A DNA stretch of 54,276 nt from Pseudomonadota bacterium (GCA_023428295.1 JAEYYV010000093.1:1-54276); one strand, 5' to 3'. Positions 9,030 through 19,657 are shown, counted from the first letter of the stretch. Notes: generated from the sequence alone by a model not told the origin. Program-made: numbers and translations.

Positions 9030-10772
9030 ATGACGCGCGCACCGATCGCCGACCGTCTCGCGCGACTCGGCGTGCGCCGCCTGTTGCTCGCCATCCACGA
9101 CGTCTCGTTTCCGTCGGATCCCGACGAGGACATCGGACGCGGCTCGCCAGCAACTGCCGCCGCCGCGCGCCTGTTCGCGTACGCGAAGTCGCTCGGGTTC
9201 ACGGGCATCCAGCTCGGGCCGCAAGGGCAGACGTCGCGCTCCAATCCATCGCCGTACGACAGCACGATCTTCGGCCGGCACGTCGGCAACATCGGGATCG
9301 CCTCGCTACGGGCAGGCGGCGCGTTCGAGGGGCTCGTCGATTTCGCGCACGTCACCGCACGCGCGAGCGATGCCCGCGCACACCACCGCGAAGCGTTCGA
9401 CACGATGCACGCGCTCGTGGACGCCGCGTGGCGCGCACATCGCGCGGGCGCACGGGCGGATCTGACACCGCAGCTCGCTGCGTTTCGCACGGCGAACGCG
9501 GCGTGGCTCGAGCGAGAAGCGCTGTATCTCGCGATCTGTGCGCAGCACGGCGGACATGGCTTTCGCAGCTGGCCCGACGCGGTTCGCGATCTGTGGCTCC
9601 GCGGCGATCGGTCGCGCACCGACGCGCTCGTCGCGGCGCATGCTGATGTGATCGATCGCCACGCGTTCGGTCAGTTCCTCGTGCACCAGGAGCATCGACG
9701 CGTGCGCCAACAGGCGGCGCGCGTCGGGCTCGCGCTGTACGGTGACCTGCAGGTCGGCTACGCGGATGCGGACGCGTGGGCCTACGCGCCCGTGTTTCGA
9801 CGCGACTACGTGATGGGTGCGCCGCCGAGCCGCACGAACCCCGAGGGACAGCCGTGGGGCTATCCCGTGCTGGATCCCGCGCAGTACGACGGCGCCGCGA
9901 AGGCACTCGTACTCGCGCGCGCGGAGAAAGCGTTCGCCGAGTACGACAGCCTGCGCATCGATCACCCGCACGGCCTCATCTGCCCGTGGGTCTATCGCGC
10001 GGACGACCCGGATCCCACGTGCGCGGTGCGTGCAGGCGCTCGCTTGTTCGAGTCGCCCGATCTCGAGGACCACCCTGCCCTCGCACCGTTGTCGATCGCA
10101 CGCGCCGTGCAGATCGATCGATCGCAGCCGCGCTACGCCGATCGCTGGGTGCGCCTGCTCGACGCCGACCAGATCGATCGCTATGCCGCGCTGTTCGACG
10201 CACTCGTCGCGAGCGCGCGCGCGAACGGTCGCGAAGCGAGTGACCTCTCGTGCGAAGTGCTCAGCACGATGCCGACGCCCCTCGAGGCGGTGCTCGCGCG
10301 CTACGACCTCGGCCGCTGGCGCATCACGCAGAAGGCGAACCTCGCGGATCCCGACGACGTGTATCTCGCCGACAACGCGATGCGACAGGACTGGGTGATG
10401 CTCGGCAATCACGACACCGCGCCGATCTTCGCGCTCCTTCACGAGTGGGTGCCGGCGAAGCGCGAGCAATGGGCGCGTCACCTCGTCCAGCGACTGCGGC
10501 TCCCGAGGCCAGAGCGACTGACGAGCGATGGATACTTCGCGAGCGCGATGCTCGCCGAGCTGCTGCTGTCGCGCGCCGAGAACGTCTCGATCTTCTTCGC
10601 GGACCTGTTCGGTATCGCCGAGCGCTTCAACGTGCCCGGGCTCGTCGACGACGCGAACTGGTCGCTGCGCTTGCCAGCGAGCTGGCAGGACGCGCGCGCG
10701 GACAAGCTCGCACGTGGCCAGGCGCTCGATCTCGAGCTCGCCGCCGACCTCGCGCTCGCCGCGATCAACTGA
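9030..10772 (+). CDS. malQ: 4-alpha-glucanotransferase (amylomaltase, GH77)
   Basis: 580 aa. GH77 signatures: GIQLGPQG, YGDLQVGY (catalytic region), LRIDHPHGL, MLGNHDT. Overall length and order typical of MalQ. Confidence 0.8.
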   Translation: MTRAPIADRLARLGVRRLLLAIHDVSFPSDPDEDIGRGSPATAAAARLFAYAKSLGFTGIQLGPQGQTSRSNPSPYDSTIFGRHVGNIGIASLRAGGAFEGLVDFAHVTARASDARAHHREAFDTMHALVDAAWRAHRAGARADLTPQLAAFRTANAAWLEREALYLAICAQHGGHGFRSWPDAVRDLWLRGDRSRTDALVAAHADVIDRHAFGQFLVHQEHRRVRQQAARVGLALYGDLQVGYADADAWAYAPVFRRDYVMGAPPSRTNPEGQPWGYPVLDPAQYDGAAKALVLARAEKAFAEYDSLRIDHPHGLICPWVYRADDPDPTCAVRAGARLFESPDLEDHPALAPLSIARAVQIDRSQPRYADRWVRLLDADQIDRYAALFDALVASARANGREASDLSCEVLSTMPTPLEAVLARYDLGRWRITQKANLADPDDVYLADNAMRQDWVMLGNHDTAPIFALLHEWVPAKREQWARHLVQRLRLPRPERLTSDGYFASAMLAELLLSRAENVSIFFADLFGIAERFNVPGLVDDANWSLRLPASWQDARADKLARGQALDLELAADLALAAIN

Positions 10773-17657: not shown

Positions 17658-19657
17658 AGGAAGTACTCGAATTGATTCTCGCTGCGTACGAAGCGCCGGA
17701 TCTCGAAGATGTGAGCAGGAGTCTGGTCGGGAGAGAGCTCTACGAAGTTGCGGCTGCCTCGCCACGCGTAGTGCGCGCCTCCGAGCAGATCATGCACCTG
17801 GAACCCGTCGTTGGGGCCGATATCCAGTGCAGCGAGATCGAGCGACAGCCACGCTCGATGCGAGTGATGAGGATCGAGATTGGCAACGACGAGAATCGTG
17901 TCGTCGCCAAACCGCCTCGAGTAGCAAATGACAAACTCGTTGTCGGTCTCGTGGAAGCGCAGACCGCGATCGGTGCGCAGCGCCGGATGCGAGCGCCGGA
18001 TCTGATTGGTCCGTGCGATCAGGTGCCGTAGCGACTGCTCGTCGTCGAGGTTCCACGCGCGGATCTGGTACTTCTCGTTCCGTGCGAGCTCCTCCACGCC
18101 GGGCCGCGGAGTTGCCTCGCAGAGCTCGTAGGACGGCCCGTAGATGCCGTAGTTGCTCGCGAGCGTCGCCGCGAGCACGAAGCGCACCGCGAACGCCGGC
18201 CGGCCTCCGTGCACGAGGTGCTCGGGGAAGATGTCCGGCGTGGTCGGCCAGAAGTTGGGGCGGAAGAAGTCCGCCACGCCGGCGAGCTCCGTCATGTACT
18301 TCTGCAGCTCGTACTTCGAGGTCCGCCAGGTGAAGTACGTGTACGACTGCGAGAAGCCAGACTTCGCGAGCGCGTACATGAGCTTTGGGCGCGTGAATGC
18401 TTCGGACAGAAAGACCGCGTCCGGATAGCGATCGTGCACCTCACGGAGGCACCACTCCCAGAACGGAATCGGCTTGGTGTGCGGGTTGTCGACGCGAAAC
18501 GTGCGCACGCCGTGCTCGCACCAGAACAGGAACACGTCGCGCAGCGCGGACCATAGTGCGTCGCGATCGGCGCTGTCGAAGTCGAACGGATAGACGTCCT
18601 GGTACTTCTTCGGCGGATTCTCCGCGTACTGGATCGTCTTGTCGGGCCGCTGCCGGAACCAGTGCGGGTGTTCCGTCACCCACGGATGATCGGGCGACGC
18701 TTGAAACGCGATGTCGAGCGCGATCTCGATGTCGTGCGCTCGCGCCGCTGCGACGAGGTGATCGAAGTCGTCGATGGTGCCGAGATCGGGATGCACCGCG
18801 GTGTGCCCGCCGCCATGGGCGCCGACGGCCCACGGACTTCCCGGATCCGGGGGCCCGGCCGCCGGCGCGTTGTCCGGGCCCTTGCGGAACGACAGGCCGA
18901 TGGGATGGATCGGAGGCAGATAGAGGATGTCGAAGCCGAGCTCCGCGACGTACGGCAAGCGCGCCTCGACATCGCGAAACGTTCCGTGCGTTCCGTCGCC
19001 ACGCGCGGACCGCGGGAACAGCTCGTACCACGCCGAGCAGGCCGCGAGCGGACGCTCCACGAAGACCTCGAGGTCGTGGCGGTAGCGCGCCGCCGCCGAA
19101 CGATCGGGGACGAGCTCCACGAGCGCGGCGAGCTCCGCGGACTGCGCGATCGCTGCACGCTCGAGAACCGGCGCGTCGCCGCGCAGTCGAGCCGCATACT
19201 CCCGCAGCGATGGATCGCCACCTCGACCGAGTGCCTCGTCGACGAGCAGCGCGCCCTCGAGCAGCTCCACGCTGACATCGACGTTCGCGGCGAGCTTGCG
19301 CTCGAGCCCGCGCTTCCACGTCGCGAACGCGTCGACCCACGCCATCACGTTGTAGTGACAGCGACCGAGCTGGCCGAGCTGGAGCGTCGCGCGCCACACA
19401 TCGTCGCCGGCGTGCTCGAGCTCGAGCTCCTGCCACGTACTCTCACCCGGCCCGCGAACGAGCGCGATCGCACGCAGCACGTCGTGACCGTCGGTCACGA
19501 TATCCGCCTCGATCACGAGGGATTCACCGACGACCCGCTTTGCCGGATAGCGCCCACCATCCACCTCGGGCCGGACCGCGAGCACCACGGCGTGCTGGGG
19601 GATGGCCGACATCGACCAAACCTTAGCGACTTCGAGCGATTCGCCCCGTCGATTCAT
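17654..19657 (-). CDS. glgE: Alpha-1,4-glucan:maltose-1-phosphate maltosyltransferase GlgE
   Basis: 667 aa. N-terminal RPEVDGGRYPAKRVVGESLVIEADIVTDGHD matches the GlgE domain-N signature. GH13_3 blocks: WYELFPRS, FRVDNPHTKP, LSEAFTRP, FFRPNFWPTTPDI. Start could alternatively be the ATG at 19612 (MSAIP). Confidence 0.88.
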   Translation of the reverse strand: MNRRGESLEVAKVWSMSAIPQHAVVLAVRPEVDGGRYPAKRVVGESLVIEADIVTDGHDVLRAIALVRGPGESTWQELELEHAGDDVWRATLQLGQLGRCHYNVMAWVDAFATWKRGLERKLAANVDVSVELLEGALLVDEALGRGGDPSLREYAARLRGDAPVLERAAIAQSAELAALVELVPDRSAAARYRHDLEVFVERPLAACSAWYELFPRSARGDGTHGTFRDVEARLPYVAELGFDILYLPPIHPIGLSFRKGPDNAPAAGPPDPGSPWAVGAHGGGHTAVHPDLGTIDDFDHLVAAARAHDIEIALDIAFQASPDHPWVTEHPHWFRQRPDKTIQYAENPPKKYQDVYPFDFDSADRDALWSALRDVFLFWCEHGVRTFRVDNPHTKPIPFWEWCLREVHDRYPDAVFLSEAFTRPKLMYALAKSGFSQSYTYFTWRTSKYELQKYMTELAGVADFFRPNFWPTTPDIFPEHLVHGGRPAFAVRFVLAATLASNYGIYGPSYELCEATPRPGVEELARNEKYQIRAWNLDDEQSLRHLIARTNQIRRSHPALRTDRGLRFHETDNEFVICYSRRFGDDTILVVANLDPHHSHRAWLSLDLAALDIGPNDGFQVHDLLGGAHYAWRGSRNFVELSPDQTPAHIFEIRRFVRSENQFEYFL

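Follow-up and report, generated by a model that had tools for sequence, protein, structure and literature searches.

What does an oxidoreductase that resembles a deazaflavin-dependent enzyme do beside the genes of the GlgE pathway of alpha-glucan synthesis? The question is raised by a stretch of 54,276 nucleotides assigned to a Pseudomonadota bacterium (GCA_023428295.1, JAEYYV010000093.1:1-54276; the whole of it is called the window below), where six genes between positions 9030 and 19657 comprise glgE, a treS-mak fusion, glgB, a malQ-like gene, a phosphatase gene of the haloacid dehalogenase (HAD) superfamily and a gene for an oxidoreductase of the luciferase-like monooxygenase (LLM) class. 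An earlier note on this DNA had likened the LLM protein to the glucose-6-phosphate dehydrogenase that depends on F420 (Fgd) and found this unexpected outside actinobacteria, unless the organism makes F420 or the enzyme uses another cofactor or sugar substrate. Our analysis makes it likely that the locus is a standard GlgE-pathway alpha-glucan cluster together with an LLM of family TIGR03885, which would be flavin-dependent and linked to trehalose and glucan metabolism. The finding is largely ordinary, consisting of a known pathway cluster and a member of a curated, uncharacterised family; the link to trehalose and the remodelling of the cofactor pocket are testable leads and not established novelty.

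The LLM gene (11496-12461, plus strand) encodes 321 aa matching PF00296. Among the LLM models it scores best with TIGR03885 ("flavin_revert", described as an FMN-dependent LLM class oxidoreductase, FMN being flavin mononucleotide), reaching 405.3 bits against a cutoff of 398.7, while the Fgd equivalog TIGR03554 is missed (139.4 bits versus 420). The closest database proteins are 50-68% identical, come from, among others, Myxococcota, Gemmata, Phyllobacterium and Noviherbaspirillum, and, where named, are called "TIGR03885 family FMN-dependent LLM class oxidoreductase" or, in the naming of JGI, "probable non-F420 flavinoid oxidoreductase". In a neighbour-joining tree of 180 sequences the protein falls in a clade of 151 tips that contains none of the four F420 references (Fgd1 of Mycobacterium tuberculosis, Mtb; Rh-FGD1; the Fgd of Thermomicrobium roseum; fHMAD); the T. 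roseum Fgd is the next lineage outside it, an HH[C/S] signature is present in 139 of the 151 tips, and named homologues share 53-59% identity with the window protein. To judge from these placements, the protein is not an Fgd and belongs to TIGR03885, a clade nested among F420-dependent enzymes of the Fgd type. The likeness to Fgd that the earlier note had seen thus stands as homology, within the Fgd/Adf branch, and not as membership of the Fgd family. Of the two branches of its alternative the one invoking another cofactor or sugar substrate is the better supported, and with the family identified as TIGR03885 the puzzle of an Fgd outside actinobacteria dissolves. The note had also held that a place in an FMN-dependent clade, together with an absence of F420 genes, would speak against its reading; the phylogenetic half of this is what was found, as far as the name of the clade goes. 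The case shows, moreover, where labels such as "F420-dependent G6P dehydrogenase" (G6P, glucose-6-phosphate), wrong for this clade, originate, several homologues having been so named by JGI. Our literature search found no paper on TIGR03885, on a "non-F420 flavinoid oxidoreductase" or on any characterised member of the family.

An AlphaFold2 model of the protein (pLDDT 88.6) has a TIM-barrel fold, and its nearest structures in a Foldseek search are those of T. roseum Fgd (9HAV), Mtb Fgd1, Adf and fHMAD, with template modelling (TM) scores of 0.85-0.90; these neighbours place the protein inside the dehydrogenase branch of Mascotti et al. (PMC6279831). The motifs GxGEALNE and RY(H/N)PA are shared with the F420-dependent Fgd enzymes, and the catalytic His40, Trp44 and Glu109 of Mtb Fgd1 are kept as H37, W41 and E106. 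Because Adf and fHMAD have the same residues, this triad is not specific for G6P. The overall identity to the Fgd enzymes is 34-37%, however, and the phosphate pocket differs: Lys198, Lys259 and Arg283, said to be invariant among enzymes that have FGD activity (PMC5352752), correspond to Asn192, Lys246 and Ala270, in an alignment that is less certain in the C-terminal third, and Lys246 is not conserved within the TIGR03885 clade. In a subclade (e.g., P0014, P0033, P0034, P0037, P0060 and P0085) even the triad is altered, with W41 replaced by F and E106 by Q in a correlated manner, while the His/His/Cys signature is kept.

As to the cofactor pocket, conservation among 128 database homologues singled out positions with a conservation of 90% or more within the clade that differ from all four F420 references, including H6, M33, C34, A73, Q76, A101, G168, W182, A183, K211 and S274. 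Most of the clade-specific positions are found where a barrel strand ends or close by, and C34 and two histidines are found at the C-terminal face of the barrel. The signature of the clade may be written His6/His9/Cys34/Gln76/Gly168/Trp182/Lys211, with K, A, V and F in Fgd in place of H6, H9, C34 and Q76. The bulge of strand beta3 differs as well: the F420 enzymes have GT(S/G)V..P, the clade has FG(T/V)-V(T/N)AP, and the window protein, with FGT-VTAP, is one residue shorter; all 90 LLMs compared (that of the window and those of 89 fetched loci) have both the deletion and the HH[C/S] signature. This is the site of a non-prolyl cis-peptide that backs the re-face of the deazaflavin, Ser74-Val75 in Mtb Fgd1 and Gly70-Val71 in T. 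roseum Fgd. The clade lacks the first residue of this peptide; the window protein has Thr70-Val71 here, which may still be cis. We conclude that the pocket has apparently been remodelled in the clade, a change that does not tell which cofactor binds. The window protein has all the clade-specific residues and the bulge deletion, and differs from the family at three positions, with Y79 for H, R120 for K and Q272 for R.

One may ask whether the enzyme is nevertheless a genuine F420- or FO-dependent sugar-6-phosphate dehydrogenase (Fgd or FSD), which would regenerate reduced deazaflavin from the G6P of the glucan and trehalose pools. The retained triad and the structural neighbours agree with such a role, as does the score with TIGR03557 ("F420_G6P_family"), the cutoff of which is passed, whereas the missed TIGR03554, the loss of two of the three phosphate-pocket residues and the deletion of the bulge residue, with a clade-specific His/His/Cys/Gln pocket instead, speak against it. 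The distribution of the family is informative on both sides. By their titles, the 80 genome loci belong to Actinomycetota (31), Bacteroidota/Rhodothermota (14), Pseudomonadota (10), Chloroflexota (6), Cyanobacteriota (5), Gemmatimonadota (5), Myxococcota (4), Planctomycetota (2), and Deinococcota, Nitrospirota and Acidobacteriota (1 each). Known or predicted F420 producers are Actinobacteria, Chloroflexi, some Alpha- and Betaproteobacteria and Tectomicrobia, with a few Acidobacteria, Firmicutes, Nitrospinae, Rokubacteria and Dadabacteria; Cyanobacteria make FO only, and Myxococcota, Bacteroidota, Planctomycetota and Gemmatimonadota are not among the listed producers (PMC8498797). Many family members thus come from Actinomycetota and Chloroflexota, which suits a deazaflavin enzyme, but the family is common in the four unlisted phyla too, and since about half of its hosts are not expected to have F420, a conventional flavin is favoured. 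Within the window, to which the search was limited, no CofC, CofD, CofE or FbiC domain was found among about 45 open reading frames (ORFs). Taken together, these data make a true F420 or FO enzyme highly improbable.

If the cofactor is a flavin, the protein might instead be a two-component monooxygenase dependent on FMNH2 and O2, like SsuD or LuxA, that oxygenates a sugar-derived or other substrate. The NCBIfam family name, with its "FMN-dependent", would fit, and so would the conserved C34 and the two histidines at the C-terminal face of the barrel. In SsuD and luciferase, the peroxyflavin owes its stability to a cysteine close to the flavin, a parallel of interest as a lead. On the other hand, the hydride-transfer dehydrogenases are much closer to the model than are the FMN monooxygenases SsuD, SfnG and MsuD (TM 0.68-0.75, 15-20% identity), the protein keeps the catalytic triad of Fgd and Adf, and no flavin reductase gene is adjacent to the LLM gene in the window. 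We consider a monooxygenase unlikely, though of the alternatives weighed here it is the one that we would discount least.

What goes furthest beyond the earlier note is the neighbourhood of the family in other genomes. In 42 of the 80 genome loci the immediate neighbour of the LLM gene encodes a GH13 protein of about 550 aa, a trehalose synthase (TreS) of the Deinococcus type; it is on the strand of the LLM gene in 36 of these 42, the median gap being about 18 bp, and the LLM gene precedes its partner in 28 loci and follows it in 14. Over its whole length the partner matches TIGR02456 with about 562 bits, short of the cutoff of 678; it aligns full-length with TreS of Deinococcus radiodurans (PDB 4TVU, E~1e-145) and has intact GH13 catalytic motifs. 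Of 85 loci, 52, belonging to about ten phyla, have genes for TreS, TreZ, TreY, GlgX, GlgB or MalQ within flanks of 10 kb. Some loci have the alternative route to trehalose: TreZ is encoded in those of Polyangiaceae and Spirosoma (702 bits, cutoff 538.8), treZ-treY strings are found in Spirosoma and Chitinophagaceae, and next to the homologue P0003, 63% identical to the window LLM, a GlgX-TreY fusion ends 3 bp ahead of the LLM gene. The window variant resembles the stand-alone TreS pairs in that the operon beside its LLM gene likewise encodes a TreS; it differs in that this TreS is fused to a maltokinase, is encoded on the opposite strand, in a GlgE operon at a distance of 1.9 kb, and shares only about 40% identity with the stand-alone partner. 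Closer to the window, the block of malQ and LLM on one strand alternating with HAD and glgB on the other is kept in contig L086, where malQ is 77%, HAD 65%, LLM 68% and glgB 84% identical. No paper describing an association of LLM with trehalose synthase was found by us, and the family-wide link of LLM to trehalose-forming genes (TreS, TreZ/TreY, GlgX-TreY) appears to be unreported.

Some loci depart from this pattern. In exceptional cases the LLM neighbours encode a short-chain dehydrogenase/reductase (SDR) or a protein of the ASRT family. Genes of the latter (PF07100, Anabaena sensory rhodopsin transducer) lie near LLM in 9 of the 85 loci; in Pontibacter and Fischerella ASRT directly precedes TreS-LLM, which makes a three-gene string, and in a metagenome-assembled genome (MAG) of Acidimicrobiia it is just upstream of a GH13-LLM-TreS group (examples are L017, 7879-10957; L062, 7871-10951; L048, 7796-12636). 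In Micromonospora (L008-L012, L016, L040 and L066, at ~8450-9950) the LLM gene follows, by 50-100 bp, a gene for an aldehyde dehydrogenase (PF00171, 476 bits) and not one for TreS, which suggests a different or additional role of LLM in that genus. Four apparent LLM-GH13 fusions (P0196, P0209, P0210 and P0216) turned out to be frame-shifted or merged calls of adjacent genes and were rejected as Rosetta-stone evidence; three of them still show an LLM gene followed by a gene of the TreS type.

The position of LLM beside the GlgE operon might be mere coincidence, the enzyme having no part in glucan or trehalose metabolism, and the Micromonospora pairing, the separate transcription of LLM in the window (convergent with glgB, divergent from HAD) and three close homologues with unrelated neighbours would be in keeping with this. 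It is hard to reconcile with the frequency of trehalose and glucan genes in the 10-kb flanks, with the immediate, mostly co-directional TreS neighbours and with the four-gene block kept in L086, and we take it to be improbable.

As far as homology and gene context can tell, the LLM protein is thus probably an oxidoreductase of sugars that depends on a flavin and is linked to the metabolism of trehalose and alpha-glucan. It would oxidise a sugar hydroxyl or hemiacetal by hydride transfer to a flavin, probably FMN, in the metabolism of trehalose, maltose or alpha-glucan. Since only one of the three phosphate ligands of Fgd is left, a reducing sugar without a phosphate group, for example glucose or maltose, is the most likely substrate. 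As to this specific chemistry, our confidence is no more than about one-third. A wider reading, which we advance tentatively and hold at slightly less than an even chance, is that TIGR03885 represents a widespread redox step, dependent on a flavin, in the metabolism of trehalose and maltose, derived from Fgd by abandoning F420, losing the bulge residue and gaining the His/His/Cys signature, and coupled to TreS and TreY/TreZ in at least ten phyla, with the Kofleriaceae locus described here (the host is discussed below) as one variant. In this case LLM might plausibly oxidise glucose, or else maltose or a maltooligosaccharide at the reducing end, by which it could pull or police the equilibria of TreS and TreYZ; alternatively, it could pass electrons from trehalose and glucan stores to a flavin-linked acceptor.

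Several observations weigh against a flavin enzyme of trehalose and glucan metabolism. The cutoff of TIGR03885 is exceeded by just 6.6 bits, and the protein also passes the parent model TIGR03557, which has "F420-dependent" in its name (224.7 bits, cutoff 210.4). The "FMN-dependent" label itself is an inference of the curators, and all of the nearest solved structures are of F420 enzymes. At Y79, where 98% of the clade have His, and at Q272, where most have Arg, the window protein departs from the clade consensus. F420 is common in Actinomycetota and Chloroflexota, which account for 31 and 6 of the 80 loci, so that taxonomy speaks against F420 in no more than about half of the family. As for the context, the homologues with unrelated neighbours (P0004, P0007 and P0016) are myxobacterial ones, and the window LLM gene, which converges with one neighbour and diverges from the other, would share no transcript with any glucan gene.

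What makes the locus worth attention is a conserved and apparently unstudied pairing of an Fgd-derived flavoenzyme with trehalose-forming enzymes. Metabolism of trehalose and GlgE glucan matters for desiccation and osmotic tolerance and, in mycobacteria, for virulence and drug targeting. Should the proposal be true, enzyme discovery would gain a concrete target in an unrecognised redox enzyme wired to this metabolism in soil bacteria, cyanobacteria and actinomycetes, and the family would offer a natural case study of a switch from F420 to flavin. The glucan operon, for its part, is one more example, a myxobacterial one, of a well-described pathway.

The six genes were delimited by ORF selection guided by G+C content at third codon positions (GC3), by Pfam and NCBIfam scans and by an independent gene call on the identical public contig L001 (ENA ERZ27268833). 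All were concordant and confirmed the coordinates given by the earlier note. The first gene of the operon, glgE (17654-19657, minus strand), encodes the alpha-1,4-glucan:maltose-1-phosphate maltosyltransferase of 667 aa, with the domains GlgE_dom_N_S (PF11896, 180.2 bits), Alpha-amylase and GLGE_C (PF21702, 103.5 bits); its best PDB matches are the structures of Streptomyces coelicolor GlgE1, full-length at E=2.6e-180. It is followed by treS-mak (pep2; 14322-17657, minus strand), a fusion of trehalose synthase and maltokinase of 1111 aa, in which the former part matches TIGR02456 (treS_nterm) at 890.8 bits (cutoff 678.35) and the latter TIGR02457 (TreS_Cterm) at 448.1 bits (cutoff 375.05) and also Mak_N_cap of Pfam. 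The third gene, glgB (12451-14325, minus strand), encodes the 1,4-alpha-glucan branching enzyme of 624 aa, with the domains CBM_48, Alpha-amylase and Alpha-amylase_C (NF003811, 913.6 bits, cutoff 741).

On the minus strand both junctions are ATGA overlaps: at 17654-17657 (CTATGAAC) the TGA of glgE overlaps the ATG of treS-mak (TTCCTATGAACGA), and at 14322-14325 (GCATGAGC) the stop of treS-mak overlaps the start of glgB (GTTGCATGAGCGCG). The independent caller picked the same starts on L001, which gives the 1111 and 624 aa. Such an overlap is the commonest operon junction in bacteria. A Shine-Dalgarno-like motif, AAGGCG, is located 6 nt upstream of the glgE ATG, and no strong motif of this kind precedes either internal start, that of treS-mak or that of glgB. 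The three genes had been said to be translationally coupled; both overlaps are there, and coupling is compatible with them, though not proven by them. We predict that glgE, treS-mak and glgB make up one operon and that HAD and LLM are each transcribed alone.

Since the family matches are strong and the pathway is established, the steps of the GlgE route can be assigned with some assurance: TreS would convert trehalose to maltose, Mak would phosphorylate it to maltose-1-phosphate, GlgE would polymerise this and GlgB introduce the branches, giving a glycogen-like glucan, while the divergent GH77 protein MalQ may supply maltose from maltooligosaccharides (the "MalQ bypass"). [quoted passage not shown] The reading of these genes as a GlgE-pathway cluster is fully supported by the family matches and by the gene organisation described there. 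Compared with the GlgE operons of P. aeruginosa PAO1 and actinomycetes, the window has the same four enzyme activities, co-directional glgE and glgB and MalQ as a source of maltose; the TreS-maltokinase fusion is shared with PAO1. In contrast, malQ of P. aeruginosa belongs to a separate operon with glgA, treY and treZ, and here it is near the GlgE operon; HAD and LLM between malQ and glgB, and a host from Kofleriaceae, are further differences from both. No glgA, treY, treZ, glgX or glgP was found in the 54-kb window.

The malQ-like gene (9030-10772, plus strand) encodes a GH77 4-alpha-glucanotransferase of 580 aa, which matches PF02446 at 162.9 bits over profile positions 5-460 of 465. Because it misses the cutoffs of the NCBIfam MalQ equivalogs (119.7 bits versus 556), we regard it as a divergent member of the MalQ family; amylomaltases of the PDB match it only at E~1e-17. 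The HAD gene (10765-11409, minus strand) is convergent with malQ and shares 8 bp with it. Its product has 214 aa when read from the ATG at 11409; an alternative GTG start at 11484 would give 239 aa, and the orthologue in L086 was called at 214 aa. The motif I DVDGTLVDS and the Pfam matches HAD_2 and Hydrolase assign it to the HAD-IA family phosphatases. The more specific claim of a beta-phosphoglucomutase type found no support at family level, TIGR01990 (51.8 bits, cutoff 189.4) and TIGR02009 (75.8 bits, cutoff 153.35) both being missed. The best NCBIfam match is phosphoglycolate-phosphatase-like (88 bits, cutoff 225), every NCBIfam cutoff is missed, and the best PDB match, 3s6j, is an uncharacterised HAD protein, so that, with the DxDGT motif and HAD_2, membership is predicted only to the level of superfamily IA. 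In the 80 genome loci no HAD homologue adjoins LLM, and the linkage of the two is lineage-specific.

The overall layout is malQ on the plus strand, HAD on the minus, LLM on the plus and then glgB, treS-mak and glgE on the minus. Of the three genes placed opposite the operon by the earlier note, malQ and LLM are so; HAD, lying on the minus strand, is not. LLM and glgB converge with their 3' ends and share 11 bp (12451-12461). The divergent spacer between HAD and LLM is 86 bp by the gene coordinates (11410-11495), with a similar 85 bp in L086, and presumably contains the promoters of both genes. A promoter scan found no consensus sigma-70 site in it, and the promoter/terminator, Rfam and tRNA scans gave nothing informative in the region. 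Large antisense ORFs, for example 12115-14505 (plus strand) opposite glgB, have no domain matches and were dismissed as shadow ORFs of high-G+C DNA. Directly divergent from glgE, with a spacer of 46 bp, is a gene for an AAA_5 ATPase of the MoxR/dynein type (19704-21872, plus strand), and next after it comes that for a thrombospondin type-3 repeat protein; no evident tie to the glucan genes was seen.

As for the host, the ATP synthase beta subunit (AtpD) of the window is 96-97% identical to proteins of Kofleriaceae MAGs, by which the host is predicted to be an uncultured member of Kofleriaceae (Myxococcota). The G+C content of the window is 65-70%, and its remaining genes appear myxobacterial, among them Ser/Thr kinases with TPR, bactofilin, PEGA and thrombospondin repeats. 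The identical LLM protein is also encoded on an NCBI contig and on contigs from ENA and Logan. G+C falls to 0.617 at 47900-50900, where the two long ORFs 47968-49437 (plus strand) and 49440-50966 (minus strand) have no Pfam match. On the minus strand, 1608 codons without a stop, which include a short TPR region (22959-27785), overlap 598 stop-free codons of another frame (27044-28840); GC3 is high in both, and 22959-28840 could represent a single very large gene that a frameshift or an assembly error has split. Near the left edge of the window, the ORF 104-814 (minus strand) contains an integrase core domain (rve, 58.5 bits, in two stretches). The adjacent region holds a homologue of the eukaryotic major vault protein, 831 aa long (985-3480, minus strand), with matches to MVP_shoulder (75 bits) and Vault_3 (43 bits). 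It stands directly beside the genes of the RNA ligase RtcB and the regulator RtcR (3481-4794, minus strand, and 4764-6383, plus strand), and RlaP, a nucleotidyltransferase annotated as belonging to an "RNA repair pathway", is encoded 26 kb from it (29554-30375, minus strand); by its domains and surroundings, the product of 985-3480 would be a bacterial vault-like protein in an RNA-repair neighbourhood.

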